Assembly: GCA_003344405.1 (NCBI GenBank)
Contig: NOWV01000183.1
Coordinates: forward strand, 62,001 to 126,000
From: Trichoplax sp. H2
Taxonomy: Eukaryota
Reading direction: 5' to 3'
DNA length: 64,000 nt
In this document: piece by piece, positions 16,851-60,519 of the stretch
How positions within the stretch are numbered: position 1 is the first letter of the stretch
Layout: each line of letters starts with the position of its first letter
The notes under the pieces: generated by a model
What the model was told of the DNA's origin: nothing
Databases searched by the model: none
The model's input: only the letters and a program-made list of their open reading frames with translations
Made by a program: the position numbers and the translations under genes

Positions 16851-17447
16851 GGCATCCTGGCAGCCATGATCGACTTTCATCATTCGTCGTCAGTCTACTG
16901 TATGATTACAGAGGTATGGTACAGTTAAAATGACCAGCAAACACAGGGACTAGACATTCTTAGACTGACGCATAGACTGATCGACCATGACTCGAAAGTC
17001 TCCTTTAGTAGTTACTGCAACGTATGAGAGCTATTTCAACGTCATTTCAAGATAATTTACAGTGTTGTGATACGATTACATCTCTAATAATTATAATCAG
17101 CCTAATCGATGACCGGTAATTGGCAGGAGAATGGCAGCAATCCATCAAGAAGGCATCCTGGCAGCCTTGATCGACTTTCATCATTCGTCGTTAGTCTACT
17201 GTATGATTACAGAGGTATGGTACAGTTAAAATGACCAGCAAACATAGGACTGGACATTCTTAGACTGACGCATGGACTGAATGACCATGACTCGAAAGTC
17301 TCTTTTAGTAGTTACTGCAACGTATGAGAGCTATTTCAACGTCATTTCAAGATAGTTTACAGTATTATGATACGATTACATCTCTAATAATTATAATCAG
17401 TCTAATCAATGACCGGTAATTGGCAGGAGAATGGAAGCAATCCATCA
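16851..17447. repeat. Tandem direct duplication, 2 x 301 bp, in the LSM1/FBXO41 divergent intergenic region
   Basis: ggcatcctggcagcc...gcaatccatca starts at 16851 and again at 17152; the copies are colinear with scattered substitutions. Confidence 0.95.
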
Positions 17448-25229: not shown

Positions 25230-36409
<11,180 letters not shown>

Positions 36410-37651
36410 AATAATGTATCTATCCGTGTCAATGTTATACTACTCTTCTGCTTAGGCTTTGAATGTCTAATTGAATGGTACTAATGTGTTGAAAAAAGCA
36501 ACAACATCGTTGATCGATTGTGTTTTAAAGGCTGAACATTTTACCGATCCCTTGGATCGATGGTCAATTTGCGTTGGTGAATAGAAGATGATTGTAATTT
36601 TATGATGACAAGGATACTATAATCAGTCTGGTGAGGACAAGGAAGCGTACAACTTGTTCCACCAAAGTACACGTCTAGGATCCAACGCGTTTATCTTCTA
36701 TCACTACAATATGAAGAGAAAAAAAAAGCCAATAAAGCAAAAGTAGTCAATGGACCACCTCGCTATAGCTGACACCAGATGATGACTATGATGTACTGAT
36801 CGATTTCAAGCATTCTTAATCATAAAGTGTCCATTTAGCGTGGAATTGTATGGATACTAGGTTCAAAGTAGCATTGGCAAAGTAGTACAGTAAAAGATCA
36901 CCTTGACAGTATGGCCCAGCATATTATCCAATAGGTCAATGATGACACGATTTCAACCTTTCAACCATGGACGTTACAACTGGCTGACTGGAGACTTCCC
37001 TTGGTGGCTAGGTTGTAACGTTTCTACGTCTATTGCAGGCTGATTTTGAATTAAAATAGGAAAGTAGGGCTAGATGAAAGAGATCAATGTCTTCTGCAAG
37101 AACTACCACAGTATTACTTACTTATTATGATGATTTTAATATTAATTATTATTGTTATGATGATGATGAATTGTTGAAAGCCCCCTGGCTAGCCAAGCAG
37201 CAACTGACGGGGCCTGTTCACTGTCTACAGTACTATACTGTACACTGTACAGTACAGTTCGATTCCAACATATGTACTGTACACTGTAGAGTACATACTG
37301 TATCTCTACTGCACTACCACTTTCAGTAACTCTACTGCAATGGACAGCAGTAATGTTCACTCATACGGTCTACACTACTCCAATCTGTCTTACTCCAGTC
37401 TACAGAATGACCACAGAGATAGAAGAAAACCTGGATGAGAAAGAAGGATGAAAATGATCAAAAGGGGGGGGCACTTTTCCAAGCGTATGGTATTGATGAA
37501 TTCTTCTTCTGGCGACCAGTATTGCAATTAGTACTGTACTCTCAGGGTATAGTAGGCCACACATTTCTACAGTACAGTATTCCAAGTCAATGACTTCGCG
37601 GGTACCGTCTAGTATACAGTACAGTACAGTGGATGGTCATATGAACTATAC

Positions 37652-38172
37652 GATAATTCGACGCACGTAAAAGAAAGAAACAACGCTGGCTGGCTGACCT
37701 ACAGTACAGTAGTACTGTAGAAGTTGCGGAAAAAAAATCACTATGACACTGTACAGTACCATGGACTACTCATACTACAGTACTGTTCATATCCAGTAAA
37801 AGACAAGAAATGCTTGCCATTTCTTCTCGGCACTGCCGGTCTGGAACTATTTTTGTACAGTATACAGTTTGACATATTTACATTTTGGACAGTAATACAG
37901 TACTGTTCCTATCCAGTAAAAGAGAAGAAATGCTTGCCATTTCTGTACTGTACTGCCGGTCTGGAACTATTTTTGTATACAGTATGCCATATTTACAATT
38001 TGTACAGTACAGTACAGTATAGAAGATAACTCGACGCACGTAAAAGAAAGAAAGAACGCTGGCTGGCCTGGTAGAAGTTGCAGAAAAAAATCACTATGAC
38101 ACTGTCCTGTACCATGGACTACTCATACTACAGTACTGTTTATATCCAGTAAAAGACAAGAAATGCTTGCTA
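37652..38172. repeat. Nested direct repeats: a ~373-bp-period block (37658 and 38031) containing a 120-bp-period sub-repeat (~37776 and ~37896)
   Basis: tcgacgcacgtaaaagaaagaaa...gctggctgg occurs twice; atccagtaaaaga(c/g)aagaaatgcttgc occurs three times. Confidence 0.9.
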
Positions 38173-38653
38173 TTTCCGCACTGTACTGTATCCCTATCAT
38201 TTTTCTGGTCTTGCGACAGTAGACACTCGACACTGGACAGTATTGAAGAAGACCAACACCGTTTTTACCTCCATGCTAATCATTCATGGACGGACAGACC
38301 CTTTTCGGACTGGTCTCGTCAAAACACTGTTTCAAACACTTTATTAGAACACCACTTTAGTATGCAAACAGTCCATTTTCAAGAAACTGCATTTTTTCTT
38401 CAATTCAGTAATATTAGGTTAAATCGAATTATTCGTCAGTATGTAGTAAGTTCTGCTTGCAATCAGCTATATAAGATCATAGATGCCATTTAAATGAATA
38501 CCAGTGATTTCGAAAACAGCCACAGAAGATCCATACTAATAGTCAGTAGACTCAGTACCGTATGCAGTTTTCTGAGTACCGTAAAATATTGATTGGTAGT
38601 TTCCCCAATTATTATTTGGTGTCAAAGTTGTGTTCAGTCGACCAGAGTGCAAA

Positions 38654-39615
38654 GAAAGTAGAATCCAAGTTTATTGGAAGTTTAGCAGCTTGATTTCTAC
38701 ACATTTCATTTCATTACACAATATACTGTACCCAAGTCACCGTCCTCACAATCAATGTGAGCTTGTCCATGAAGAAATGGCATTGTTACTAGAAAATAGA
38801 CTCATATACTGTACTGTATATAAATACATATTTGTTAACGACACCTTAACATACAGACTGTACTGTAGGTGCAGTATACTGTACAGTATGATGGATATAT
38901 TGACATACTGTACAGCATACGTACTGTATAATGTGCAGTAGCAATGATGAAAAAGGCTATAATGATCTTTGAAGATCATTTGCAGCAGCTACTTTAACAA
39001 ATAAGACTTTTATCGTACAATCTAACTCCTTCCATGCATAATGTTATGTACAGTACAGTACAGTAAGACTCAAGGCGTAGTCTTAACGAATGCTCAAATC
39101 GCTCCTTACGTCTACGAGTATTTATTAACTATTTAACTGTAACCCAAGTTACCTAACAAAAGCAAAAGTACAGTATGGCGCTCATCACGTACATCGAATC
39201 AACATAAAACATACCNNNNNNNNNNNNNNNNNNNNGAAAGTAGAATCCAAGTTTATTGGAAGTTTAGCACCTTGATTTCTACACATTTCATTTCATTACA
39301 CAATATACTGTACCCAAGTCACCGTCCTCACAATCAATGTGAGCTTGTGCATGAAGAAATGGCATTGTTACTAGAAAATAGACTCATATACTGTACTGTA
39401 CAGATAAATACATATTTGTTAACGACACCTTGACATACTGTAGGTGCAGTATACTGTACTTGTACAGTATGATGGATATATTGACATACTGTATAATGTG
39501 CAGTAGCAATGATGAAAAAGGCTATAATGATCTTCAAAGATCATTTGCAGCAGCTACTTTAACAAATAAGACTTTTATCGTTCAATCGAACTCCTTCCAT
39601 GCATAGTGTTATGTA
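38654..39615. repeat. Duplicated ~390-bp block (38654-39048 and 39236-39615) on either side of an N-gap
   Basis: gaaagtagaatccaagtttattgg...ctccttccatgcata(a/g)tgttatgta is present twice, with indels concentrated in TACAG/TACTG runs. Confidence 0.9.
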
Positions 39616-40168
39616 TGATAGACTGGTAATGTCTAGGAATTAGGGCAGTGTCACACACCACTAGTGACAAAGTAGTCTACACACGCCAATCCTTGCGTAG
39701 AACGCCACTTACTAACTTAAAGAGGNNNNNNNNNNNNNNNNNNNNNNNNNNNNNNNNNNNNNNNNNNNNNNNNNNAATTGTTAATTGGCGCTATAATATT
39801 ATTAGCGCATAATAATATCAATTATCACATATTTGTTCGATAGTAATTAATAGGATTACAAAGTTATAGAAAAGACTAAGTTATGCATAAGAATAATTAA
39901 CAGGTGGAAAAGGTGTAGATCTGATACAAGTATATAAGAGGTTGTAATTTACCTCGCTAGAGAGAGGAAAAATACGGAGACCTAATAAAGTTAGTTTAGT
40001 AAATTTATCTAGACGCTTCTAGTCCGCCTTTACTGTTGACTGAGGTCCTTCGCTGAAGTGGAGCGAGTAGTGACGCCTGGTGGCAGGTTTACGGTAGGAC
40101 AGAGGAGAGTAGGATAAGNNNNNNNNNNNNNNNNNNNNNNNNNNNNNNNNNNNNNNNNNNNNNNNNNN
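39216..40168. other. Assembly gaps (N runs at 39216-39235, 39726-39775, 40119-40168)
   Basis: N characters in the sequence. Confidence 1.
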
Positions 40169-40201
40169 GATGATGTAGACGAGATAGTCAGAGATTTACT
40201 A

Positions 40202-40631
40202 TCATTTATTACTGAAGGAATCTTGGCACCCAAGATTATAGTCTTTACAATTAAATATCAATTGAAAAACTAGTTGACTATCTAACCGACTAACGAACTA
40301 AAAAGGAATAATAATTAGGACGAGCTTACGCATCGTAACAGGCAGATAAATTGCATAGCTGCCTAACTGATAAGATAACCGTATAATACTGATATCGTAA
40401 CTGTATTGATACGTTCACCAGTAATTTACTAATACGTGTGTAATTATTGCAATATACTGTGTATGTACTGTATATCACTTGTGGGAAAGGCAACCCAGAA
40501 TAAAGAAGTGGACTCCACGCATCAGGATATTTTGAAGTGTCTAACCGAGTATTACATGATTGACCTAGGGTCGCGATAGAGAACATAACGCATAGAATAA
40601 ATTTGCAGGACTTGAACATCATTTCGGGCAT
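40202..40631 (-). CDS. Candidate small secreted protein (putative exon 40631-40479 and an exon starting at 40297; 3' structure uncertain near the gap)
   Basis: MMFKSCKFILCVMFSIATLG is signal-peptide-like and is followed by QSCNTRLDTSKYPDAWSPLLYSGLPFPQ. The donor is weak (gtgata); the acceptor is strong (ctaattattattcctttttag) and leads into FVSRLDSQLVFQLIFNCKDYNLGCQDSF. No family recognised. Confidence 0.3.
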
Positions 40632-41552
40632 TGACCTATTTGGCCTTTGTCCATCACTTAATTAAATTACTAGTGGAACCCACGCTGGCTATACAGTACT
40701 TCGCGTCCTGTATCTACTTATATTTTTTTACAGGTAGTCGCTGCTTTTTACCATATCATAGACAGGGACTACTAAAGTAGCTTCGCCAAAATAATATTCA
40801 ACATGTACGCTATCATCTGCTTTAATGCTATATTGATCTCCATATGTTTGACTAACAAAAGCGTTGTTCGCTCCGCAAGAATTTTTCAGTCCAGTGTAGC
40901 TACGAGTGACTCATGAATTTCATTCATTTGGGTATGATTTAAAAAATCGAGATTTTACTCTAAACTACTGTACGCTGTACAGTATACTGTATCATTCCAT
41001 TCGAAGTAGCCTGTAAACTATGCAAACTGTCGTGCGGACGAACGTACAGACCAAAGCCGAGCTCTGGCACATATCGTAGTACCGTTGCCTACAAAGTGAA
41101 GTACTGTACTGTACTCGAGCCATTTGGCAGCGTTGCGCTCGGAATTTTGACAGTCTCAAAAGTCACTAAAAAATTGCGTCATACCATCGACGAAGACGTA
41201 CAGTACAGTAAAGACTCAAGGCGTAGTCTTAACGAATGCTCAAATCGCTCCTTACGTCTACGAGTATTTATTAACTATTAAACTGTAACCCAAGTTACCT
41301 AACAAAAGCAAAAGTACAGTATGGCGTTCATCACGTACATCGAATCAACATAAAACATACCGAATTCATGTAATCGTGCTTGCCCAGCCCCTAATCTATT
41401 GTTAACAACTCTAGATTGACGTCAAATATCCCCTGATGCGGAGGTTGACCAACATCTCTCATTATATACCTCTGAGTGATGAAGTGGCGTCGACTTTTTA
41501 TACAATTTCAGTTTGTTAAATCAGAAATTAGTTCTGTCACTATGAGAACTGC

Positions 41553-41760
41553 ATTGGACCGATATTGCCTATAAAATCAGTAAGAGAGATGAAATTGGAC
41601 TGATATTGCCTATTAAATCAATAAGAGAGATGAGATAGGATTGACATCGCCTATAAAATCAATAAGAGAGATGAAATTGGATTGATATTGCCTATAAAAT
41701 CAATAAGAGAGATGAAATTGGATTGATATTGCCTATAAAATCAATAAGAGATGAAATTGG
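41553..41760. repeat. Minisatellite, 5 x 41 bp (attggattgatattgcctataaaatcaataagagagatgaa)
   Basis: Units start at 41553, 41594, 41635, 41676 and 41717; no spacers. Confidence 0.95.
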
Positions 41761-42562
41761 CATTAAAAGTAGAAAAAATTTTTGGCATAGCTATGCAAAT
41801 GATCTGTGCGCTATTTTAAGGCGAGTACGTGAGCATCCTCTTGTGAAATTATGCATCATCCTTAAAATCAGAATTCCATAGTTTGCCATGTGCCAAATCG
41901 AAAAAAAATAACTCTTGAGAGCGATGTACTATACCACTCATTTTTGACATTCACTATAATATACTGTTGTGAACTATGAAGCCCTGAAGGGTACATTGAG
42001 AGCAATGGATTGGACTGTGCTTTATTGATCAAGCAATATTTTCAACATGTTATTTTCATTCATTCTTGATTTCATTAACTCACTATCAATTGCTTCTATA
42101 TTTAATTAATTATAATTACTAAGATACATCGCAACAGATTTCTACATCTCTAATAGCACCTTATAAAGAGTACAGTATGGGAATGCACTATCTTTCCATG
42201 TCATTGCGTTGGATTAATTATGAATACAATGATAGTAATTCTTAGCACCATATTTATTTTATTGGATGAAACAATGCACTGGGATAAATATGGAATGGCT
42301 AGCCGTAAACATCAACAATAACGTATCTTTCGCTTTTAGCACTTCATGTTTACGGTGTACGTGACTCTTATCACGTTCAAACATAACTTGATTTGATTGA
42401 TCATCAGGTATATAAATATCCACCAACGAATGCTATTTCGCTTTCCATTACAAAATTCAACGTGTATACCGGCCTAGGAAATTGAATATTGGCAATTTCG
42501 CTTGATATTAGTATTTCGATCAAGAATTGATATACAATTCCTTCAATACTCTACAATAAGAA

Positions 42563-44956
42563 ATGGCAACGGGAGCTGTTCGTGTTATTCACCATTTAAA
42601 AAAGCATTATCAGGTAAGCTCCATGTCTGACATGACGATCATTTAGAATATAGTAGACGAGTGACTAAAACGTTGCATTACAATTCGAGTTTTGACTGCT
42701 ATTATTCCCTAATTGAATCAGTCCTATTACTACTGCTTACACTCCATTGAGATAGTGGATTAGTTGCATTTCACGGACCCGTTCAGGATAATGTATACTG
42801 TTTAGGATATGTATATATAAATGTATACGTGTATACTCGGTATACTTTTGCATGATAGAATTTTCATGGCTAATGAATACCTTCAATTTTATGATAGCTG
42901 TCATACTTTCCGATTCAAGGTTTAGATTTTGTATAGAATAATGAAGTAGTCAAACCGAAAACATTGTGAAAATTTATAGCTTATTTCAACATACAAACAA
43001 TACTATACAGTACTCGAATATACCGCAACTATGCGCGTATCCTATTTTGCTAATATGCTTCAACTACTGTAGACTGACGAACGCAAGAATTATGTACAGT
43101 ACTGTAGATCAAATAAGTGCTTATCGCCAGTTATTGGAAAATCCACTTGAACAGTCTGAAGAAAGCAATTATTATATCCTCGAAAAGAGTATTTGAAATG
43201 ATTTATAGTTCATTTGTAAGTAAATTTTTCTCGTATATTAACTTGGCTAAAGAGCAATTTTAAAGTCAAAATTATGTTACTACCGTTTTCTAAATAAAAC
43301 GCGCAAAATAACGCAACCATAATGATCTAGCCGTACTTTATCGATCCGAAAAGGCGAATTGATAGTTAGCGTAACACTTCTAACGTACGAATCCGATGAT
43401 AAAAATGTTAAAACTCACACGACATTTTAAATTAAAATTTACCCATGCTATTCTATTACAATTATTGATGTAATTTAATAAAATTCTAATATAAGATTAA
43501 ATGAGTATATAGTACTGTATGAGCGGCAGGGCTGGATGCCCTTCTAATTACTGTAAAGTTGATAGCATAACGTTGAATGTCTCCGACAAAGGACATTATA
43601 CTGTACAGCTGCTGTATAGTCCTATCTTTGCTTCTCAATATCCTTTATCTGTTAATAACATAATACTATCGGAAAAAAGAGACTACCATATTTTAATAAG
43701 AAATACAGTACTGTACAATGTACATGCGCTGATTGATTGCAGTACTCATGATTTGTTACTATAATCTCTACGTCTGGAGAAAGAAATTTTCGTAGAACAT
43801 GGGTAATATTTTAATTGAAAGTAAATGATACATACGAGAATAGCTTTAATAATAGCAGTTAGCTCATGATAAAGGATGATAATGTATTCACAATTTAAAG
43901 ATAGCATCGAAGGGCAATTACTGTACGTGATCACAATCAGGCATTACCCCACGCCTTGCATAGAATTTGCATATAAAATGAATCATTATTTGCTATTGCA
44001 GTATCTTTGCTACTGTAGAAAATTCCCGACTGTCACAGTGGACTCAGCTACATAAAATTTCTTCCAATATCTTGCTTATTAGCAATTTAGATACATAATT
44101 TCTAAATGGGAAGGCTTAAGAATGGAAAACAAAATTGCAAGAATTAATGTATTTTATTGTCCTTGTTACAAACCCGCTATTAAAGAAATTCTCGAAAACA
44201 ATAAGAGATTTTGAGTAGTCACTATTAATTATACGATACCATGAATATCATAGTATATGCCACACGTGCCGACTGGTTTTAGGTTAGGGTTTGGTGCTGA
44301 ATCTCAAATTAATATCATTTCATACTGCCCCCTATAATAAACCTTTGGGGATGGATCAAATCGACGTATAGTATTTGTTGGATCAGGCCTAAAATAAAGA
44401 TGGCTACTAAATAAAACCAGTAGATTGAGAATGATTAACGTGTAGCGGCTGAAATTGAACTTTTGCTAATTTCGTTTTATTATTTACTTACATTTCTGTA
44501 TGCATTTGTTCGTAACGCCAGGTACTTCCACTTGTTGGCTGTGTAAATTTTGCTCTTGGTATTGCATGCTATTCCATGTATTGGGGCTTCAAAAAGCCAG
44601 ACGTTGGGTATGTCGGATTGCATTATTGTAACTCAAACTAGCCCAATTACATATAATCAATAAAATATGTTGGAATGTACCAGTTATTCATATTCTGTCT
44701 ATAATTTATAATATTTTTTCATTACTATAGTGTCCGACGTTGGAAATATGACGTACCATGGGATGCAGTTGGCGACCATGAACAATCTAAGGTACTATTA
44801 GCTACGACATCACTGATTTTTACTTTCTATGATTGGAGATAAATATCTGCCACTACTAATATTGACGCTATTCAACGACAGATCTTTAGCCCCAATGTTG
44901 ATTACAACAGCCTTCCACGCCGTGTAAAAATCGAGGACGTTATCAATTTACCTTAA
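42563..44956 (+). CDS. NDUFA4: NDUFA4/COXFA4/C15orf48 (MLRQ/B12D) family cytochrome c oxidase-associated microprotein, 90 aa, 4 exons: 42563-42613, 44522-44607, 44731-44791, 44882-44956
   Basis: MATGAVRVIHHLKKHYQ|VLPLVGCVNFALGIACYSMYWGFKKPDVG|VRRWKYDVPWDAVGDHEQSK|IFSPNVDYNSLPRRVKIEDVINLP*. It has KKH..LPL, a single TM segment, PDV, PW, Q.K and NVDY motifs of the family. Junctions are canonical and in phase. The exact paralog assignment is uncertain. Confidence 0.8.
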
Positions 44957-47165
44957 GCTGCTACTACTTTGTAAATACGAGATTCTGAAATATGTCTGAC
45001 AGACAAGCAATGACACTGTTGTGTTTAAATTATCTATCACCCTCACTTTTAATATTTAATGTTATTTGAAAGTGTAAGTCTATAATAATTGAATTAAGAT
45101 TATATCTGCTTGTCTAACGATATGTTTCCGTAAGTTGTTTAGTTTTAATGGCTTAATCATACGTTTCTCAGATTCCATAACAATTTATTGTCAATAGTAA
45201 ATCAGAGTTTTTGTGACTATGGTATGTGTGTTAAATATTGAAAATATTTGCAATTTTCTACGTAACTCTGTTAATAAAGTAACAAAATCTTGACCATTTA
45301 ACTTGGACAAAGATTGCGTTGTACATTTGAAGATAGTACGTCTTGCTTTACGATTTTCAAAAATAATGGATTTCTTTATATTCTAGTTCATCATTAGATC
45401 TATTTGTGTGAATCGTAATTCAGGATATAGTGTAATATGTTAGGAATCACGGAGGAAATTATTAATCGACTATTAGCTGTAGCGCGGCCTGTGAGGACAC
45501 TATGTAACTCAGTTTTGATTAATATAAACATCTCACTGGTCAGAATTGCAAAATAATGTAAGTCGATGCGCATCCTATTGTTTATAAAGAGCAGCTAAGA
45601 GATGTGTTTAATGCCTATAGCAAATATATTAGTAACGGATTCAGAATGGATAGATTGTTATATATCACGAATAAAAACTAATTGTAAAGATTTCGGTTGA
45701 ATTTCTTGCTTGCGAAAAAGTGAATGCAGACTTGAATATACTGTATATTACGTAATGTAGACTGTATGCAATCTCCTAATATTGTCATAAGTAATTGCCT
45801 CTCTTCACTCAATGCTCATTAAAAACACTTTCAGTAGCTGGCGTGTCAGAAATGATGATCACTACCGTTCAGAATTAGATTGCAACAGGGCTAGCGACAG
45901 TCTGGGTCTACAATACTGTATATCCACGGAAATAAATAATTTAAAGCAGCGATTTTGACGCTTATATCAAATTTTACAGAAAGTGTAACTACTGTATACA
46001 TTCAAGTGTTATCGAATACTACACCTTACCATATTATATCAATTAACCCAGCACGCTATGCCTTACAAATTATAACATTACCTTGCATTTTTACTCAACA
46101 CAGTCAGTGGAAATTGATCAATGGAAGGTATAAAAGCAAACTAAAATTACTTGGTGGATATCGTGGGATTAAGCTTTATACAGCAAATCTTAAAGTGGGT
46201 CATAGTATTTTTACTCCTAAATGATATTCATTTTCGGATCAGACATTGAGAAACAGGTGTAGTGATATATCGAACTGAATCAATTAAGATAATAGTCTAT
46301 TGAATAATTTAATTAAGTGCTTCGAGTCTTAAATCCGTGCCTACTTGCAATTTTATATGAAATCTAACTTAAAATATTCGGAAGCAAAAAATTTTAGCAC
46401 GACTCTAGATTCTATTTAAAAAGATCTGCTTTTATTATATCATTCCAAAGGAGAATAATAACCGTAAATAAAGATCAAACTCGTTCATTGCTATTATAGT
46501 ACAGTACAAAACGAACCATTTGTTCGTTAATAAAAACCAGCAATATACGATTATATGCTACATAATTTCAGAATGTGGCTATCTGTCGATATGCTGACTA
46601 TTTATTTCAGCATTTAAATTATAATACAATAATAGCAAATATGCCTATTTTCTGCATCTTTAGTAAAGCGATTGTATTAAAGATACGAGTATGCCGCTAC
46701 ATAAAATGACAACTTGTAATTGCAGTACTTTATAAAAGTAATACTTGAATTCTTGAGAAATAGTTGAATGAATTATAAATTTTAGTTGATTACGCTAATA
46801 ATCATAATAAACGATATGGTAGCAATTAAAACGATATGTATAAAATTTGATTAACGTATTTTATGTCAATATTTCAAAAACGCTATATTTTCAATATATT
46901 ATTTACATACAGAATAGATAATCATGTGTGCCTTGAACACGCATTAATTTAATACGACGGAATAAGTACTTCAAATGATCAGCTATTGATGCTGTATATC
47001 TGTAAATATAGTCTATCTATTTCGTCTTAACATACAGTCAAAGAAAGACAGTCAACTCTCATTCGTCAAGCAATGTAGATTACGACTAATAATTTTAATA
47101 TATGGCTCTGATAGTCATAAATAGTTTAGAGGAATCAAAGAAAGCTAATATTATTGCTATCGCAA

Positions 47166-49037
47166 TTATCTCGCATTCATCAATGATTTTGTTTTATTTT
47201 TTAGCTGACGATAGCGCAATGATTCATGATTTCCATTAGTATTTTTAGGTTGAGCCAAGCGACTAAATATAGATCTCGGGCCATTACGTTTTTTAAGTTC
47301 TTCTTTTACTCTAGCCTTTTCTTCTTCTTGATTCTTACGGATTCTTTCCATTTCTTCATCACTATCGGGATGAACAACGACAATACAAGTTGCTTTTGAA
47401 ACAACTTTATTTTTGCGTCTTCGCTCTCGAGCTATATTTTCGATCAACCTTTCACGTTGATAAGCTAATGCTTCTTTTTGTTTAGCTAATCTCTTGGTAT
47501 GTTTAGTTACGAAAGCTCTACCACTTGAAATTGAATCAGTAGTTTCCGCAGCAGTTGCATCAATTTGTTCTAACGCTTTATCAAGCATCAATAAATTTAA
47601 TGATGAAATCTGGTCAGTACTTTCTTGACGATTTCGTTGAGGGTTAGGTCCAAACATGTAAGGTTTCATTGAAAATTGCTTCTTTTCCATCCAGTCGTGA
47701 AATGCCAGGCTACCATAAAATTTTCGTTCCTTCTCTTCATCTTGTTCAGCTTTCATTTGACCTTGCCTTTCTAATGATATAATTTTATTAGTAAATTGAT
47801 TTTCTTTTATAGTTTCTTTTTTATCAATTTTCCATTGCGCTTGATTCAGAATGCGCATGCATTCACGATGACTCCATAAGCGTGCTAAAAATGCTGGCGT
47901 ATGTCCTCGCTCATCAGGTTGTGTAACTATGGCATTCACTGCAATCAGTTCTTTTAAACAATCAACACTGCCACAAATTGCTGCCATATGTGCTGGAGTT
48001 AAGCCGTCGCGATTAGTTCTAAAGACAGTAGCCAATAGAGATCAGACTTAATTCATGTGCACACGTACAGTACTATGATATCAACAGAATAGATGGAGAC
48101 ATTGAGAAATGCGAAGGCAAAGATGTTGCTTAAATAAAAAGCTATCACCATATTGAGACTAAATTAATCGTTATAGTATACATTTACGTTCAACTAGCAC
48201 GATTGAAATTAAAAATAATCAAAATTGTTTAGTTGTTATACCGCATATACATCAAATGTACGTATAATAGATAAGAAAACAAGAAACGATATAACTTACT
48301 TAGAAGGATCAGCGCCTGCACGTAAAAGGTATTGAACACATTCCAAACTACGATTTGAGTTATCATTATTAATCGCAAGATGCAATGGTGTCCATCCAGC
48401 AACATTAGAGGTATTTGGATCTATCTTTTGCTTTTCAACAAGAAGCATGAGACAATCAAGACGACCATGCAACGCTGCTAAATGAATTGCGGACAATCCC
48501 TAATAGCGATTTAACAGGAAATTAGCTATAAAATTTAAGCAATAACCTCAGGAATAGTGTAAAAAGTAACAGTAACCGCAACCTATATGATATTACTTTG
48601 TCGGTCGTTGAAGACTACGGTGGAATTTATCAGATCGGATTAATTATCAATTATTACACAGCGTTATTTATAACATGCAGTACGCCATTTCCCGAAACCG
48701 AAGTTACAATCATTTTTATCCACATACTATACTCTACATCTATAGCGGATGCAGTTAGTGATACAATTAGATTTCATTGTAAGCTAAGAAAATACAGGTT
48801 ACATAGATTATTAGCATTGATAAGTCAATAAGTTTATAGTTCACGGTAGTTTAGTTATTCTATCTTGACATGGAATACCTCTTTATCAGTTTGATGAACT
48901 GGTCTTCGTTGGCGTATACTCTGATGCAACCACGCCATATCACCTACTGTGCAGGCCATTAATGTATCTTGATCCTGTACTGTGTTGGTCTTTTTAATTC
49001 TCATTCGTGGCTTTGCTAAATTCGAATTTTCATCCAT
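47166..49037 (-). CDS. ANKRD53: Ankyrin repeat domain-containing protein 53-like, 3 exons: 49037-48879, 48499-48300, 48018-47166
   Basis: ACTVGDMAWL...TDKE|GLSAIHLAALHGRLDCL...GWTPLHLAI...GLTPAHMAA...GHTPAFLARLWSHRECMRILNQAQWKIDKK. The ankyrin repeats plus the W.H..C.R.L....WK.DKK tail match recalled ANKRD53. Confidence 0.8.
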
Positions 49038-49485
49038 GCCTAGTATTCTTATAATCCGGGAAGTTGTAAATCACTTAATACGATTATAAAAGGATATTTT
49101 TCTAGAATTTGTATGGAGGCAGGTAAAAGGAAATAATGGATAAGATTTTATCTGATATTGCAGATCAGAATAAAATATACTACATTATGGAAAAATATCT
49201 GCCAGTCATAAAAATAAGGCATACGAGGCTTTGAAAGCTTGACTTCAATGTACCGTTGACAAAATGCTGGAATAATGTTGGTGAAACTATTGGATATTGG
49301 CAATGTATAACGTATTGGTAGCTGTATAAAACTGCGGGCTACTGATCTGTAAACAGTACGTTCAGCAGAGACTGAGAGTCTCCGGAAATGAGTAAAATTG
49401 AATATACAAGTTACTAACTTATGTGAGGAACTCTATCGCACCAAATTGCTAACCAATTTCCCAGTCAATATTTTATGCCGGTTTT

Positions 49486-49498
49486 GTTGCTAAGTTAC
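49486..49498. promoter_or_regulatory. Candidate RFX X-box GTTGCTAAGTTAC about 450 bp upstream of the ANKRD53 ATG
   Basis: The reverse complement GTAACTTAGCAAC fits the GTNRC-N-RGYAAC X-box pattern. Confidence 0.35.
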
Positions 49499-50460
49499 GC
49501 ACGCCATACTACAGTATATCTTACACTATTTTATCCCAACTTCTACAGTGTACTGTACAGCCTGAACTGTACGATAACGGTACAGTACTGTACTGTATGT
49601 CTGTAGTGTCTGTCTGTACGGTATCTTCTTATTTACTTACTGTCACACAGGACTGTATAGTGTCTGTCTGTCTTTCCACGCCTGCTTCCAGAGTTACAGT
49701 ACTGGTAACAGTACTGTTAATTGACAGTCCTGACTTATTACTTCTTCGGACAGACGGACATCTTCCACCAAATGATACTGTCAATGTCGAAGAACGATTA
49801 CTTAGTAGGAATCTTCCGTGTCTGTTTTCTAATAAATCACTGCTACTAATTTAAATAACATGGACGATCTTATATAGCTATTTCAAAGCAGAACTTGAGG
49901 AGTACACTAAGTACTGCCATGATACTGCACATTGTACTGTGCAGTCTGTAGCCCCCAATGCACTACTCTAAGTACTGTCATAACGGAGTGTATGGACAAT
50001 ATTTTAAGGCGATGAGGAGAAATTCTGTCCGTCCGAGAGGGATCAGCCCAGGTCTGATACTGTACAAAAGCGTGCAGCAGGACTACTGTAACAGTACTAG
50101 GAGTCCATAGTAAAACCAAGCAAGCAGCGAATTTGGAGGCCAATAGCTGACAGACAGTATAGTGTATCGTTTCAGGTATACGATTCACCTGAGATGACCA
50201 GCGTCGCGGTATAGTACTGTACTACTGGAGTAGAATGGTCGAGCTCGTTTTTATCCCCTAGGCAACCATGCCAGACGAGATGTGCACTGGGCAAAAAGAA
50301 TTGACTCAGCAAATTCGAATGGAATATATTCATTAATTGGATCTTATTATTGATGTTATGGATGGCCTATGGTTAGCATGAATTAATAGCAGATTCTTTC
50401 TAATTTCAATAATTGATTATCCGGCAATACTATAGAAGAGCACTCGCAATCTTGCCCGTC

Positions 50461-53400
50461 ATGAATCGCAATGGAAAGGAATTGGGCTTCAGCCTCAAAG
50501 AAATCTGCCTCAAGGTCATTGCAGATCATATTGATGAATGGTTTTGCTCGTCGATATCGGAGTTAACATTAAAAAATTCAATGTATGTTCTTGGTCCATT
50601 CGAATGCCTCGGTAAGTTATTAAGGAGCCTACGAATTGAATTGCAGCAATCCTATTCTTAAGGGCTGGATTGCAGATGGAGCAACAACACATTTCTGTGT
50701 CGCTATTCTACACGCCTTCGCTTCGAAGCACTACATGCAGGCATGCAGTAATCCTATTCTTAAGGGCTGGATTGTAGATTGAGCAAGAACACATTTCTGT
50801 GTCGCTATTCTACCATCTTCGCTTTGAAGCACTACATACAGTAGTCCTATTCTTAAGGGCTGGATTGTAGATTGAGCAAGAATACATTTCTGTGTCGCTA
50901 TTCTGCACATCTTCGCTTTGAAGCACTACATACAGTAGTCCTATTCTTAAGGGCTGGATTGCAAATTGAGCAAGAACACATTTCTGTGTCGCTATTCTAC
51001 ACGTCTTCGCTTCGAAGCACTACATGCAGTAATCCTATTCTTAAGGGCTGGATTGTAGATTGAGCAACAATACATTTCTGTGTCGCTATTCTACCATCTT
51101 CGCTTTGCGCTTTGAAGCACTACATACAGTAATCCTATTCTTAAGGGCTGGATTGCAATTGAGCAAGAACACATTTCTGTGTCGTTATTCTACACATCTT
51201 CGCTTTGAAGCACTACATACAGTAGTCCTATTCTTAAGGGCTGGATTGCAAATTGAGCAAGAACACATTTCTGTGTCGCTATTCTACACGTCTTCGCTTC
51301 GAAGCACTACATGCAGTAATCATATTCTTAAGGGCTGGATTGCAAATTGAGCAACAACACATTTCTGTGTCGCTATTCTACATGTCTTAGCTTCGAAGCA
51401 GTACATGCTCACAGAGCAGATTAACTAATACCACAATGGTGGATTGATCAACTATGATATGATATAATGCAAGCAAAGGTATTCAGGCTTTCTGATATCA
51501 GTGCAGACTACCAGCATAGGAATATCCGTGCTATCGAACCGTGTAGCTGCACACTCATTGTGTAGAATATAAGCCCATGATCAATTCGAGAGCGATCGAA
51601 CTGTATCAATTTTAAAGGGACACAGCTAACTGGAGATAACCATCAATTCTACACCAGTAACATATCCCATATCTTTGACATACATCATCAGCATCATTGT
51701 AATGTTGCTACCGCCAACAGCAAAGTTTAAGAATTTGAAACTGCAACCGGTGGTTCTAACACAGTTCAACTCCAGTCCGGCTTTGAGCCGAATTGCTGTG
51801 ATAGCTAATTATATGATCGGTTAGTTCTGTACAGTGTACAGTATTAAGTTAATGCTAACAGTTTGTAATAAGCCATCGAGGATCTTGAAAAGCCTGAACT
51901 TACGTCAGTATTATTACGGTATCAGTAAGTATACGCGTACAGTAATTGCGAATCGAACTAGATCATAGTTGTAGATAACATTAATCATTAGTCTCCAAAA
52001 TACCTTGGTCGCAACATACCCAACGAGCTACAGCCACTCTATCCCCCTGGACTGGACATACTTACTTTTTGTATAGTTGATGTGAACTAAAATAATAAAT
52101 TTTAGCGATAAGATCCTTGTAGGCCTTCTAAATTAAATATCAGCGTCAAACAGGTAATATTGTTTGATGACCCGTTATTATACGCGTAGATTGTTATGCT
52201 GCCAGAAAATATCATAATGTTCCATGTTTTGTCCTGTCGATGTGATGGAAACAATTTACCTTTGTCATATCTACTTTATAGATTCCGAATCAACTCAGCA
52301 ATTAATCAACTTATTAAGTATGAAGAAGAAACTTAAAGTAATGCACCTGCACCTACTGTTGCATTCACGATTGGAAGCAATCGATTTTACCGTGCCGTGC
52401 GCTTTCATGAATGATATCTTTATTAAAAAGCTCGAATATCGATGTCCGGTAAGCAATATAACAACTATGAAACTTCATATTAACGATACATGGGTGTCAC
52501 TTTCGTTCGGTCTTGCAGTATGTAGCTACCTTAATTGTCAGAAATGTCTCCATGACAAGGGTCTTACTGACATGCCAACCAAGTAGCTGTTATAATTGTT
52601 GAATATTACGTTAGACAAACTGTGTCACAGACTTCAATAGCTGGAACTTACGCTTGACTGAATTAAGTAACTTCGATGGCCAAATATCTATTAGCTAAGA
52701 GTGAAGTATATCTTCATCAGCAGCCTTGTAATAATTGCAGCTAATTACAGTGATTGTCTGTTTTAAAGAATGATAGTAATATGAAGTTAAGCACCATGTG
52801 ATGTACAATGATTAATTGTGCTTAATGAAACAGTATACTAGTGCCATTGGAATTAAGATCCATTCGTTGCAGGCTTTAAATCGATTAAAATTATCTAATA
52901 AGACCTACCGTAATAATGAAAAAAATGATGAGGTGCTCTAGCTGCAACTAATACCACATTCAATTAATGTAGCTTGTAAGTGAAAACGCCTATCTTTGCT
53001 TCAATCTTAATATATCTACTTAGAAAAGTAGCATAAGAAAAGTATAACACTGAGAGAGCAATTGATGGTACTTAGACCAATCAAACTATCGAAAAATAGA
53101 TTTGGAATCAATTAGAATTAGTAAGCAAGCGGAGTATATCACTCTGATGTAACTACTCGATAAATGTTTAAGTGAACCATCTCAACTTACTACTTTTTAT
53201 ATATTTCACAGAGCGATTAGTGGTATCATGCATTCAGAATTATATTTTTATGCTACTCTAAAGTAATTCTAATTAATTAATCAATTACAACTAATCACAC
53301 AAATTGAAATAGATTATGCCTTACTTTTCCTTTCTAAAGTAACCTAGCAATCTCATTTTAAGTAATCTACAATCAGTACATTTGACGCTCATAGTATTCT

Positions 53401-55014
53401 ATTAACTAATTAATGCATTTAGATCGGTTAAGTTAGGTTAGCTATCTACGATTTATAGAGCTCAACAAAAATTAAGATCAACTAACAATGATAAATCATA
53501 ACCCGCATAAAGAAATCGGGAACATAATTATGTAATACTCATGTACACGATAATTTTTAAAAAGCAAAATTAGTCATGGTCACATTCGTACTACAATACT
53601 AGATCTGTCTACTCTATTACTACCATACATCAATTGCTTCATACAAACAATAATTAATTATTTTAAACTAAAATTTATAAAGGAAAATTCTAAAACTATC
53701 TAAATTACAATCTTATAAACTTTCATTGATAGAAATTAATCAGAATATCTTTAAAGAACTGTTCCAAAGTAACGGCAAAGGCAATCAAGTGCTTGGCTGA
53801 AGCTTTCAATGCATTACAGTATCTCGATCTTAGCAATTGCTACATGGCTTGTAAAGATGATGTGTTAAGCTGCATTGGAAATAACTGTGCACAATTACGG
53901 CAATTAATTTTAGATGGTTGTAGCATGATCACCGATACTGGAATAAAAAATTTTTGCCAGTGTTATGCCAAAGCTAATCGAGATCGTAAATTATTAAGGA
54001 AATTGAGCCTAGTTAATACACAGGTACGATTCGATAACTACTCGTATTAATTAATTATTAAGATCTTTTAATATCTAAGTTAACCCGTTCTAAGTGCTAG
54101 TATTGTCCTTATATCAGATTACGGATGCAGGTTTAAGGGAAGTATTACAGACCTTTCGGCTGCTTTCCACACTTTCCGTCAGTGGATGTAGAGACATAGT
54201 AGATCCATTTTGTTCTTTCATTCCTCAAAAAAAACTATTTAGTCTTTCTATTCTTGACCTATCAAATACGGGCATTAACGATATATCTGTTGACCATATA
54301 ACGACTCTATGTCCTGGCTTACATGATATTAACATTAGTAATTGTGATAACGTAACAGACGTTACTATTACTACTATTAATAGTATTAGTGGAGTAAGAA
54401 GTTTTTCTATTGCCGGTTGTCATTTAATTACGTTTACTATTGGAATTATCCCTTTACTATATAATCATGGATATCAACTGGAAACGCTCAATCTTTCCGG
54501 TATGGATAATATCGACTTGGCCGCTATCTGGCATCTTTGTCCTCGATTAAAAGTATTAATAATGGAAAGCTGCAAAGATATTTGTCAAACACCTACATAT
54601 GGAATAGATACCAATCAGAGTCGCCATCTTCATTTACAGAAACTAAATCTGAAAGACAGTACATTTTATCAAGGGGAAGCAGACATTGACGAAAGTCGTT
54701 CAGATTGTTTAAAATTTATAAAGAAATTTTGTGGTAATACATTGAAGTATTTATATTGGAGTAGGATGGAAGGAATTACTGATTCATTAATTTGTGATTT
54801 TCTAAATGAAGATTGCTTCAAGTCTTTAACTTATTTAGAATTACGTTACTGTCATAATATTACAAGTGATAGCCTAGAACAAATTTTACAGTGTTGTCCA
54901 TCTTTGCAACAGTTAGATATTCGCTTCTGTCAGCAAATATCCACCGCCAATAATGAAGAGCTGAAATCATACGCAGATGAGATAAATCATAATGTTACAA
55001 TCCTTTGGGAATAA
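50461..55014 (+). CDS. Cysteine-containing LRR (FBXL/AMN1-like) protein with an N-terminal BC-box-like motif, 4 exons: 50461-50611, 52282-52448, 53733-54023, 54118-55014
   Basis: N-terminal SLKEICLKVIADHI is BC-box-like. LDSESTQQLINLLSMKKKL...LLHSRLEAIDF is AMN1-like. Many LxxLxLxxCxxITD repeats follow. Junctions are in phase. No F-box seen. Confidence 0.8.
50643..51408. repeat. Intronic minisatellite, 8 x ~94 bp
   Basis: The anchor c(c/a)tattcttaagggctggattg occurs at 50651, 50753, 50846, 50940, 51034, 51134, 51227 and 51321. Confidence 0.97.
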
Positions 55015-55832: not shown

Positions 55833-58800
55833 TTATTTTATTTTCTTTGTTGCTGTGCCAATATGGCAGTTGTTTACCTATTAGTAAATATTACCGATCA
55901 TAAAATTTGTTTAATATTAAAACTTGCAGAAATTCACATACATAAGATTGAAGGTGTAACTCTTTTCCAGTTCAGCAAAACTAACAACTTTAACAGTAGC
56001 TAACGATAATACTAACCGTTGTAGCAAATCTTAAAGAATTTAAACTTTCTTGAAATGATACTTCATATGGTGAAATATTAACAAACATCAATCTATTGGA
56101 GAGAAGTGAACATAATTAATAGATGTTTACAAGATTGCCAGGGCATATCAATGATTAATTTTATTTTACTTTACTAACGTTTTGCTATTCCCGCCCAGTG
56201 AATTTTGAAGTAAGTAAGTAAGTTTTGAATTCCTGTACGGGATATGTGAGTCCTGAAGGATTAAAATTAATTTAAATTAAGGACATGGCGAAGATACCAT
56301 CGAAATTTTAATGCTCTAACCATTATAATTAACTATGATCAAATCACTAAAGATACTTTATGACAAATAGCAATATAGACCTTATTAGCTAGAGCTAGAA
56401 TAACTATCCCCAAATTACTCAAACTCTTGTTGATACTCTTAGCCTCAGTCAATCTTTCGCCGGTCGATTTGGAAACAAACACTCTCTCTGAGCCAGCGAG
56501 ATCGATAAGATTTAAAGTTCCTATTGCGAATGCAATGCAATTCGAAATTAACAATATCGCAAGTAACCCTTGCATTTTCCCTGAATTAAGAAATTCTACC
56601 TTCACAGTTTTCATTAGTGATTGTATTTTCGCCAATTAATTTTAACCTAAACACACTGTGACTTCGCGAAGATCTTTCATTACATTCAGTCGCAGCAACT
56701 GCTCGGTTCTGCGTTGCTTTTGCCAACAGCTTATGAACCTGAATATAAGATTAGTTAACACGCTATAAGCTCTACCCATAATTAATCAAAAGTTTTTTTC
56801 ATACGTTATTGAATGCTACTGCATATTATCAAGTCGACAAAACTAACCTCGTCTTCGGTTGTAACATTGACAATTGTTAAATTCGTAACTTTGACATCTT
56901 TTTTATCGGGCGTAAGTCTGATTTCGTGCTTGACATTATTGTTACTCCCCAATAAATCGCGAATAGTCTCGTTGTAAATCTCCAGAAACGAAGCTTCCAT
57001 ATGATACTGTATCAGATAATTATAGCGTTAATATCTACAAGAGTATAATAAAATAGGCTGTCTAATAAAGGAACTGCAATTCTCGCTATTTATAGTACAC
57101 ATTATATGAAAGATTCTAAATTACTTTCCATCCTTTTTCTTTTAAGTCTTTAGCAGAATTAAATATTTGAGCCACAGCCCTGGGAATAATACCAACGTTG
57201 GTGTAGTTAACATTATCAGAAACTGGAGGGCCTTCCATGGTGTAGGTCTTACCACTTCCAGTTTGACCGTAAGCAAAGATACATACGTTATAGCCGTCTA
57301 GAGCACTTTGAACTAACTGCGAAACTTCATTAAATACGTTTTCTTGGCTAGAATCAGGATGAAACACCTTGTCAAACTTAAATTCGTACTTATTTGAATT
57401 TCCCTTGGTGCTAGGTGTATCCTAAAATCGATAAATTTTTTTAAATTTTTGAATCAGCAAAGATAACACTAAGCGATATGCAGCTATCCAAAATACGCAT
57501 GCCGTATATTAATGTACTTACTGAAGGATGACTACTCTGTAATAACTTAATGTTTGCATCTGAACCTTCCGCAAAAATGATGTGTGAAGGATACATTTTC
57601 GCTCCTTCGCTATTTGTTAGTGGTCTCACACGACAAAATACACGAATATTGCCTTTTAATTCCTGAACGCAATTATGCAGTTTGCGCCTTTCAGCTTCTC
57701 CACTTCGAAGTTCGGCATCCTTTTCTTGTATTGTAGCTAAGTAATTTCTAATGTCTTGTTCTAATTTCTCTATGACTTGATTTAATCGTTGGCACTCGCC
57801 GATTTTAGCTTCTAATTGAATCCGAACACCATTTAAGTCGTTAGTTATGGACATGGCTTCGACATGTGCTTTTCGAATCTGAACGTCTTTATCCTCTAAA
57901 GTGCTCAAGTAATTTAGAATTTCTTCTTCTTTTTTACTTATGGCTTGATTTAATCGTCTACATTCCGCACTTTTTGTTTCTAATTGAGAACGAGCAGTGC
58001 TCAATTCTGTCATTATTGATGCAGTTTCTGCGGTCATTTTTGTGATCGTTTGCTGAAATGTACTAGCCTCATTACGAGCAACTGATAGTTGATTGCCAAG
58101 GCTTTCACGATCTCGTTGTAAGTTTTCCTTTGATAATTTAAGTAACTCAATCTCATATTCATATTTTTTCATTGAATTATTTATTTCATCTTGCAACCCT
58201 TGAACTTCTTGCTGAAATTTAACTTCTTTGTCTTTCATTTGCTGTTCAATACTAGTGGCAGCGCTTAACTACAAAAGTATAAATTCCAACAGTTAGCCAA
58301 TACGTAAAATATTTAGAAATCCGCATAAGGTATCAGATGATGAAATAACTGGCATCTATTTAGCAAACTTAGAATTGAAACTAGCATATGATTCTTCAAA
58401 ATCTAACCATCAACGTAGGAAAGTATAACATCTATTACATATTTAGAGCACCAGTAACATGATATTTTACCTAACCTGATCATTCAAAGCTATATTTTCA
58501 TCTAGAAGCTGTTGAATTTTGTTGTCTTTGTCTTCGATAGCTTTGCAACATGTACTGTGCATAGCAGGTAAAAGACCAAAAGCTTTATCGTAAACTTCCA
58601 TTCTAGATTTTAAATTCCATTTTGGATACTTGCTGATCTCATCTTGCATAGCATTTAGTTGCAAGCCAAGTGCTAAATCAATTTAGTACAAGAAATATCA
58701 AGTAAGAAGCATGGAAACTTAGAAACTGTTTTAATTAATTAAATAAACAGCAAAATGTTTAATCATTGCTATTTTTAATTACTCAGGAACTAATACATTA

Positions 58801-60519
58801 TATTTAGGCTTAATACAATGCCTGAAGTACAGGAATAATTTACATTCATTTTTTCAATATTTGATTTCGGCTTAAGTTGTTGAACTACATCGAACTACTT
58901 TAAATTTATAATTAGAATTAGAAAGCAGTAGCACAAAAGCAACAAAACTGGTAAACAAACTGATCAATTTTCTAGAAGTCATAATGCGAATTAAAACACT
59001 GCTGATATTTTACACGCTGACGTTACGCCGGTACGTATTGCAAGTCTTTATATTTACGCGATTTTTATAATCATACCATTCCAATCAGTCAAATTTGGTT
59101 GAAAGTCTTTTATGCTATTCAAATTCTTAACACCGTAGCTATGTTTGCTGTCCGATAAAGTGCTACGAACGCTCTTTTTGCGTGTGCTTAATTTCGATGA
59201 TTCTCCAATTCTAGATGTATTGAGCTTCTTGGGAGGCTGAGTTGAATGAGAAAACTTTTGCCTTTGCGCTTTCTCAGTTACCACTTTACGTACATTTCTA
59301 GAATCCTCAAGGTTAGCTTTCTTCTTGATTGAGGCATTTTTTGTATTAAATGCGGTATTAGAAGTTCGCAATTTTCCTGCTGACACCTTGCCACTATCAA
59401 TTCTGCTGCTGTTTTGATTGGAAATTTTGTGTGGTGACACTTTGCAGATTAGACTTTTAGACTTAATACCTGGCTTCGGTAACTTAGATTTGACAAAGTT
59501 TCGTATCGGCTCAATATTCTCTATTGTGTTATCCAATTTGGATTTCTTCAATATAGGCTCAGCAGAATCCTAAAATGATTAGGAGCAAGCAATAATAATT
59601 AATAGATGATAAACTATATATTTAAGATTCCATCTTATAACCTCAATTTCGTTTAAGTCCTCTTCTAAGGGTAAAATCTTTGCAGACCGTTTAACCGCTG
59701 ATGGTGGCCTTAATTTGGTAACACTCGGAGGACCTTGTATACCATCATTTATTACATTGATATCCCTCACAGCTAATGGAGTCAATGGCTGGTAGAATGC
59801 AGGAAAGTACGAGAAATTTAGTATAACGTGTAATTAATTGATACCTCCGTTTCTATATGTACCAAAGCATGCCTGGTATGTATGTATATATATATATATA
59901 TATGTATATACTATATCATACAGTACAATAAATACAATAGCTAAAGCGTTCAGTTAACATAATGCAACTTTTGTCCCCTGTTAACTTGCGTACTATATCA
60001 CAAATCAGTTAGGCAAATAAAACCTTACACCAGTCGTTATGGCATGAAAGTTAGATAAAATTATGCCAAGTAAAATAGAAAATATATAATTGTAGTAGCA
60101 ACTACTGTACTGGTATATCGGTATTTTCCCTTGCTTCAAAACTCCACCACTACATCACCAATACAATTTCATCATCAAGTCATCTCTGTAAGTTAGTCTA
60201 CATCCAGTCGAATCTCACTGAATGAATTAAAGTCGAGTTCTACATCTGTATGCTTCGATTAATTACTGCATACTACCTTGGAAATTACTGCAAATATTGG
60301 CATGCAATTACACTGCTCAAACAGTACGATAACTGCTTGACTATATTACTACATTGAATTTATACATGTTTATCATATCCTCATGATAGAACGTAAGAAC
60401 AACAATCATCATCAGTGTATTCATTTATTGATGATCAAGTACATCCGACTTGCTCTATTAATTCGTATTTAAGTTTAGTAACTAGAGAATAATCAATACC
60501 AATATCATACCTTTGCCAT
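55833..60519 (-). CDS. KIFC1: Kinesin-14 (KIFC1/Ncd/Kar3-type C-terminal, minus-end-directed motor), about 12 coding exons
   Basis: Neck [15 protein letters not shown]-loop [61 protein letters not shown]; terminal [15 protein letters not shown] basic N-terminal tail and a coiled-coil stalk precede the motor. The putative first coding exon ATGGCAAAG|gtatga (60519-60511) is less certain. Confidence 0.92.

Follow-up and report, generated by a model that had tools for sequence, protein, structure and literature searches.

The subject of this study is a short repeat unit, TA-CAG-TA or TA-CTG-TA (jointly TACWGTA, W being A or T), which is packed into positions 37215–39500 of the window, a 64-kb stretch (62001–126000 of contig C223) of a 94.9-Mb placozoan assembly. 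The units are best explained as accumulated excision footprints of Tc1/mariner-type transposons with CAG ends, which would have seeded the units, with slippage lengthening some of them; a probability of roughly 0.65 is assigned to this explanation. In copies of the same sequence, a plain TA turned into TA-CAG-TA or TA-CTG-TA in one step, the three added bases were independent of the flanks, both orientations were equally common, and the change could recur at the newly created TA. Genome-wide, TACAGTA was counted 88,555 times and TACTGTA 88,616 times (177,171 in total), while the reversed-word control gave 11,129 and 11,242, which corresponds to an excess of about 155,000 units. As the two forms were nearly equal in number, the units had no strand bias.

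The unit is a rotation of the ACAGT microsatellite of Trichoplax adhaerens, and the flagged stretch (37215–39500) is a local view of a feature already published and genome-wide. ACAGT was reported to make up 78% of the pentanucleotide repeats in that species, in a tally of 7,233 perfect tandem runs longer than 12 bp, with 54% of the repeats at most 1 kb upstream of genes and 85% at most 5 kb (Wang, Zhang, Meyer, Bao 2010, Biol Direct 5:18, PMC2871265). A role as a transcription-factor site was proposed there, and no origin is given in the portion of the text available. The unit and the genus are the same here, the clusters of the window, judged by eye, likewise appear to lie before genes, and ACAGT was again the dominant pentamer tandem class, with 1,153 tandem positions compared with 131 for the next class. 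In contrast, neither an origin nor TA boundaries, mixed orientation, or single units come up in the available text of Wang et al. (2010), whereas single TA-bounded units dominate here. Transposon-derived tandem repeats (review PMC9659126) resemble this case in that a transposon is the source of a simple repeat; the cases in the accessible part of that review are repeats inside elements or tails, and the word footprint is absent from it. In the open literature, with subscription papers outside the search, no paper was found that connects the ACAGT repeat with footprints or proposes footprint stacking as a microsatellite origin. Both the repeat and the chemistry of footprints were known before, and connecting the two seems to be new within the open literature.

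The direction of the change was supplied by an old MITE (a miniature transposable element with inverted repeats), family A, as 32 TAs but zero units are present in its 361-bp consensus. The 45 copies compared had 187 insertions, of which 119 were well anchored. Insertions of 5 bp accounted for 19 of the 119, against 3, 5, and 7 for insertions of 3, 4, and 6 bp, respectively, and 5-bp deletions for 2 of 59. Six of the 19 were exact gains from TA to TA-CWG-TA. Moreover, each of two 10-bp insertions contained a pair of units, in one case at two neighbouring TAs, and a single TA had acquired CAG in one copy but CTG in a different one. One spot gained units far more often than the other TAs, and the family A piece in the flagged stretch ends abruptly at a TA-rich site, the one at which gains are most frequent in other copies. 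Family A is a substrate that gains units and not their source.

Similar gains were found in an all-against-all comparison of paralogues in 110 sequences (799 kb), from which alignments shorter than 100 bp or with more than 25% array, and one redundant locus, were dropped. Where one copy had TA and the other TA-NNN-TA, the three bases were CWG in 28 of 36 differences, while CWG occupied only 644 of the 1,755 sites of this form within the alignments; deletion between two TAs was therefore rejected as the cause. Thirteen of the 28 had no unit within 10 bp, so that the indels were not limited to slippage copies, as the original prediction had required. Eight others had a unit nearby, six adjoined a unit of the opposite orientation, and one adjoined a complete unit of the same orientation. 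For approximately six of the 28, tandem duplication of a partial unit is an alternative reading, and 23 of 30 footprint-type indels were not tandem duplications. Copying of an adjacent unit, the mark of slippage, was seen in a minority of gains. Because the 13 gains are isolated and have unrelated flanks, neither slippage nor a fold-back supplies their template. Among 30 five-base indels of any unit rotation, 28 were anchored at TA, and TA was the only common sequence in 10 of the 13 isolated gains. The cleanest stepwise series came from a tandem repeat on contig C2 (~609,700–610,250, L109–L110), in which one position reads TA, TA, TACAGTA, and TACAGTACTGTA, that is, 0, 0, 1, and 2 units at the same TA. 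As some pairs separated by a gain diverge by only 1–3%, the unit-adding process is recent.

The wider distribution was determined in 469,780 bases from 13 contigs, sampled without regard to content (hereafter the 470-kb sample). TACWGTA occurred 1,280 times against 236 expected, and among TA-NNN-TA words CWG was at the top with 5.4 times, followed by a runner-up at 2.3 times. Single units formed 773 of the 959 chains. Chained neighbours, named by their central bases, were AA in 95, TT in 81, AT in 77, and TA in 68 cases; 176 of 321 pairs were thus same-oriented, a share of 0.55 (bootstrap over 54 bins, 0.50–0.59), and isolated doublets were divided into 21 same-oriented and 21 opposite. A slippage microsatellite would consist of head-to-tail units in one orientation, which does not describe 321 pairs with 55% in agreement. 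Because most chains are single and neighbour orientation is near random, plain slippage fails to explain the units genome-wide. The expectation that orientation would show no strong autocorrelation or strand bias was borne out, and both forms occurred independently of neighbours and strand in this wide sample, as footprints should; this independence was weaker within the flagged stretch.

The units of the 470-kb sample were strongly clustered, with a mean of 2.7 per kb and a variance of 35. Clusters held 136 units per 1,000 TA, and non-cluster, non-coding DNA held 8.4 per 1,000 TA (397 units against 147 expected). Long frames free of clusters (43 kb), used as a proxy for coding sequence, held 4 units against 7.4 expected, or 1.1 per 1,000 TA; frames overlapping clusters were left out of this test since the arrays contain no stop codons. 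In the window, clusters at 16.6–17.8, 49.3–50.3, and 61.4–63.1 kb precede gene starts when judged by eye against open reading frames, and the cluster at 37026–39693 lies upstream of the minus-strand coiled-coil open frame at 35852–36439. The scarcity of units in coding frames and their apparent concentration before genes fit the footprint explanation.

In the flagged stretch, 43 TACWGTA (23 CAG and 20 CTG) were counted, whereas 500 dinucleotide shuffles averaged 1.4 and never exceeded 6, which confirmed the dense TACAG/TACTG units reported for it. The whole window held 162 against 24.8 expected from an order-2 Markov model. The stretch is not plain unique DNA, as local duplications and parts of two interspersed repeats lie within it. 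The original prediction had cited three comparisons between its duplicated blocks as differences by footprint units. All three were located where they had been placed, but only one was clean. This one, ttttg-TACAGTA-tacag (37856–37862) against TA (37976–37977) in a 120-bp duplicate of ~90% identity, is an exact gain of CAGTA at TA, although the site is not isolated, with TACAG 2 bp away. In the second (37700–37719 against 38072–38073), the paralogue has a plain TA, but the left flanks differ (ctggctgacc and ctggcctgg), and the 18 additional bases parse as CAGTA+CAGTA+GTA+CTGTA. The third (38852–38867 against 39436–39442) differs by 9 bases, which is no multiple of 5, and the same duplicate has a further difference of 16 at 38906. 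The claim of freely mixed orientation described the 470-kb sample and not the stretch itself, where chained units were AA in 7, TT in 2, and TA in 1 case; in the whole window, 27 of 34 directly chained pairs had the same orientation. Growth of arrays as a self-feeding process was likewise upheld in part: the series on contig C2 is one clean case and the clustering is compatible with it, but slippage contributes too, most visibly in the flagged stretch.

The canonical excision footprints of Sleeping Beauty are TACAGTA and TACTGTA (bioRxiv 10.1101/659086), and the ZB transposon has similar scars and hops locally (PMC7913693). The likeness to Sleeping Beauty, a DD34E element of the Tc1 family, is close, as the sequence is identical, TA is duplicated around three terminal bases, and both forms occur. 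In the available text of these papers, the footprints are single experimental scars, whereas here the units form a genome's main repeat. The present units have the sequence of TA, CAG or CTG, and TA, originate at a plain TA, duplicate it, and carry an insert independent of the flanks. They work like a Tc1 footprint; membership in that class is not established because the cognate element was not found. A longer form was also enriched. The only strongly enriched TA-N5-TA word was TACAGTGTA/TACACTGTA (121 vs 11.4), present in 39 bins, while its dinucleotide-slippage twin TACTGTGTA/TACACAGTA (17 vs 11.4) was present in 17. This 7-bp unit, TA-CAGTG-TA or TA-CACTG-TA, may have been left by the same ends as a longer remnant, a weaker suggestion which predicts ends starting with CAGTG. 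Five-base remnants may also be left by Tc1, a point that the literature search did not confirm. The 7-bp form is enriched in Trichoplax, yet it is not among the Sleeping Beauty footprints listed in the text available.

According to the footprint explanation, a Tc1/mariner-type DNA transposon that targets TA and has CAG...CTG ends would insert and excise, and its scars would accumulate. The three bases would be the terminal overhang of the element, which remains once cut-and-paste excision has been repaired. Clusters would build up because the element re-inserts close to the donor site in open promoter chromatin and every scar supplies a further TA. The driver may have been a small or short-lived element population that is now extinct, rare, or absent from the assembly. 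Ordinary slippage would later lengthen the arrays in places. Clonal reproduction would preserve each scar.

A CAG-ended, TA-targeting transposon family in the lineage, on which the original prediction depended, was not found by gene-family, terminal inverted repeat (TIR), and pattern searches. No TA-flanked element with CAG...CTG inverted ends was found in the ~1% of the genome read directly, and the gene-family searches score only the best candidates, so that absence is not demonstrated. Transposase family searches gave two DDE_3, four Tc3-type helix-turn-helix (one from the same gene), and three pogo-type matches; a PF01359 profile search gave no match, and neither did its control. An intact DD34E or DD34D transposase had been proposed as a target, and what was found is a Tc1 relic (L001/L033, contig C323 ~46,700–47,700) with a DD34E triad, an intron-like insertion, and one in-frame stop. 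The relic is single-copy and has no detectable TIR pair. No convincing TIR pair was found around the Tc1-like and pogo-type genes, and no TIRs were detected at the three pogo-type genes. The Tc1-like or pogo-like genes without detectable ends (L002, L035, L036, L170–L172), of which L035 and L036 retain the DNA-binding part only, are possibly domesticated genes. A scan for TA-anchored TIRs in the DNA available at that stage yielded nothing but CAG matches made by the arrays themselves and one foldback; a near-perfect foldback of ~1.4 kb lies at L039:3420–4817. A search pattern modelled on Tc1-like starts matched 18 single sites, all unrelated to each other, compared with 11 matches of the control, and no partner end was found at the 4 of the 18 that were retrieved. 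Among 80 metagenomic relatives (26–52% identity over the best segment), 32 had TA-bounded inverted repeats, whose starts were read as CAG in 14 (5 of them CAGTG), CAC in 7, and unclear in 11. This shows that CAG ends are common in the family, which is no proof that this relic had them.

Three candidate sources were rejected. CAGTGCCCGG, with 7 copies in the sample, was considered as a joined pair of Tc1 ends, but its 7 matches in the genome all belong to a single tandem repeat. Family A was dismissed as a CAG-ended source because it starts with CATGG. A small MITE, family C, appeared to have CAA ends at first, and further copies gave TA|CAC ends. A review of pogo elements has no placozoan passage.

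The lack of TIR-bearing candidates with CAG ends, including the loss of family C, weighs against the footprint explanation, as do the following points. Wang et al. (2010) reported that transposable elements make up 0.13% of the Trichoplax genome and include no TIR-bearing mariner/Tc1, according to the part of the text available (PMC2871265). An excess of ~155,000 units is hard to reconcile with few elements unless these hopped very often, and the gains between copies diverged by only 1–3% make the process recent. Short non-canonical footprints were more than half of those of Sleeping Beauty in human cells, according to the available text of bioRxiv 10.1101/659086, and such words were not enriched here (TACATA 0.74 times, TACTA 0.89 times, TACGTA 0.96 times, and TACATGTA 0.98 times, with expected counts somewhat inflated by the arrays themselves); short-footprint differences were also rare among paralogue indels. 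Perfect runs (n = 372) ended at the W position in 135 cases and at TA in 107. Common ancestry may underlie several of the gains at the busiest site of family A, and some gains add 10–22 bases at once or in rapid succession. Upstream of the 7-bp unit, CTG was found in 22 and CAG in 8 of the 39 bins, a preference that counts against footprints because independent events do not predict it; together with a 12-base allelic indel at 49551 that contains the 7-bp unit, it means that this unit could have originated by local duplication. The flagged stretch itself leans to slippage because 9 of its 10 chained pairs are same-oriented. Finally, an allelic comparison was made with contigs from 4 of 18 public runs aligned to 35001–55000 (20 kb), and among the 12 of 80 indels listed, the three related to units were slippage-like. 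At 38807–38818, the contig of one public run (X7) has one additional TACTG, which is compatible with slippage, and this contig may derive from the paralogue.

The strongest rival is templated insertion during break repair, which we regard as unlikely. A repair polymerase, polymerase theta-like, would prime on a nearby array via the terminal TA, copy units, and rejoin the ends; with breaks at TA in open chromatin, arrays would spread without a transposon. Such repair requires no element, and none was found, and it accounts for the clustering (mean 2.7/kb, variance 35), the random orientation, and the multi-unit gains of 10–22 bases. However, insertions of any phase and longer matches would be expected, yet 28 of the 30 unit-type indels were anchored at TA, which makes up only about one third of the usable dinucleotides, and TA alone was the common sequence in 10 of 13 isolated cases. 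In addition, the inserts were almost always whole units, and single units were also enriched far from clusters (397 vs 147).

Less probable still is a selected promoter or chromatin motif, in which a host protein binds ACAGT, chance sites are kept, and slippage with local inversion makes the arrays. The upstream bias, published for the repeat (Wang et al. 2010, PMC2871265, available text) and repeated by the window clusters relative to open reading frames, favours it. A Hi-C model also singled out repeating ACAGT in T. adhaerens, according to the accessible part of PMC12817080, and units are gained at one spot of family A much more frequently than at the rest of its TAs. Nevertheless, selection filters mutations, and a fixed 5-bp gain with TA duplication stays unexplained by it. 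Such a motif can be compatible with a footprint origin as a later co-option. The least probable rival is a plain (ACAGT)n microsatellite made by slippage, whose mixed orientation would come from point mutation or from template switching at hairpins: it agrees with publication of the repeat as a microsatellite (PMC2871265, available text), the same-orientation triplets and pairs of the flagged stretch, the listed allelic indels, the tandem duplications among paralogue gains (~6 of 28), and the GAGTA runs locally homogenised inside family C, but single units form most chains, neighbour orientation is near random, and centre substitutions (TACCGTA 166 vs 1,280 TACWGTA in the 470-kb sample) are too rare to flip 45% of units. 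As a sole mechanism, slippage is already contradicted by the isolated gains, and it stands as a secondary amplifier.

Features in and next to the flagged stretch of the window
Position	Strand	Feature	Remark
35852–36439	-	Open frame, putative first coding exon of a long coiled-coil gene	Suggested by the chain of open reading frames; no Pfam match
37226–37303	.	Densely packed TA-CAG-TA and TA-CTG-TA units, with decayed and 7-bp (TA-CACTG-TA) ones	Approximately self-complementary
37532–37629	.	Single units and same-orientation doublets	Doublets at 37568–37579 and 37615–37629
37647–38210	+	Nested local duplications of 48 nt x2, 105 nt x2, and 85 nt x3	Source of the internal comparisons
37700–37719	+	Stack of CAG, CAG, G, CTG between TAs	Paralogue plain TA at 38072–38073, left flank different
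37856–37862	+	Exact footprint-type unit	Plain TA in paralogue at 37976–37977
38003–38019	+	CAG x3 same-orientation triplet	Slippage-compatible
38245–38545	+	Left part of old ~360-bp MITE family A	Long TIR with GGACGGACAGAC
38582–38722	+	Family B (a longer interspersed repeat), 3' end	CATTT-repeat end; second piece at 39236–39304
38654–39050	+	Block duplicated at 39236–39615 (~95% identical)	Unit-containing indels +9 (38852) and +16 (38906)
38807–38818	+	Doublet CTG, CTG
39049–39065	+	Same-orientation triplet	Start of a 151-nt segment repeated at 41211–41361, there preceded by a doublet
39389–39493	+	Units within copy 2 of the duplicated block

Other repeats were observed in and around the arrays. 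Placozoan Mutator MITEs sit at promoter loop anchors, and array-rich promoters also carry them, according to the available text of Kim et al. (2025, Nature 642:1097, PMC12221973). Family A probably corresponds to this Mutator MITE. Both are promoter-associated remnants, to judge from the accessible part of that paper; family A (38245–38545) has an ACGG-containing TIR and sits among arrays, it does not start with CAG, and no TA duplication was found in the 4 copies with both ends. Family B is longer than 1.2 kb and has many copies of 83–90% identity, with a CATTT end like a retroelement tail. Family C has TA flanks and CAC...GTG ends (L106:4400–5090; L145, L152–L161) and contains CAGTA/GAGTA arrays; in its tandem copies, the junction is TA, TACAGTA, or TACTGTA depending on the locus. 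A young 82-bp element (L106:4781–4862; L148–L151, L163–L169) is 95–100% identical at many loci, has no terminal inverted repeats, carries a 3' hairpin and, in several copies, target duplications of 5–8 bp, and often lies in or beside units. The segments 39649–39725 and 40169–40309 are pieces of another young repeat (98% to L028:968–1255), broken by assembly gaps and of very high contig depth in public runs. Tandem repeats of the window are 41 bp x5 (41553–41760), 94 bp x7 (50650–51406), and 300 bp x2 (16851–17447).

Weaker TA-bounded words were also enriched in non-coding DNA outside clusters (470-kb sample plus window), namely, TACCGTA/TACGGTA (125 vs 52), TACGAGTA/TACTCGTA (55 vs 17), and TACGCGTA (~6 times). 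We take them to resemble Tc2-like (CCG) and Minos-like (CGAG/CTCG core) scars, which the literature did not confirm; promoter CpG motifs are an alternative reading. Among the genes of the window, an exon of a GST N-terminal domain protein lies at 7791–8138 (+), an exon of an ankyrin protein at 47166–48041 (-), and exons of an F-box/LRR protein at 52218–55014 (+), whose frame at 54094–55011 is 100% identical to a Trichoplax sp. H2 protein. The gene at 57116–59569 (-) is presumably kinesin-like, judging from its motif.

A broader reading is put forward tentatively, with less than even confidence. The dominant placozoan repeat may be the record of a few highly mobile CAG-ended elements that hopped locally in open chromatin and left almost no copies. 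The process might still have been running between duplicates 1–3% apart, the fainter words with CCG, CGAG, and CGCG cores might be scars of other families, and the scars might since have become part of a promoter or chromatin-folding signal. The change from TA to TA-CWG-TA is a countable mutation class for mapping past insertion sites. If no transposon were involved, a TA-specific process that inserts a fixed 5 bp would be stranger still. If the footprint explanation is true, it would account for a 15-year-old oddity, a promoter-gathered pentamer as the dominant microsatellite, and footprint stacking would be an additional route to microsatellite birth. Trichoplax would then no longer be a genome untouched by transposons, as few surviving elements would not mean little transposition.

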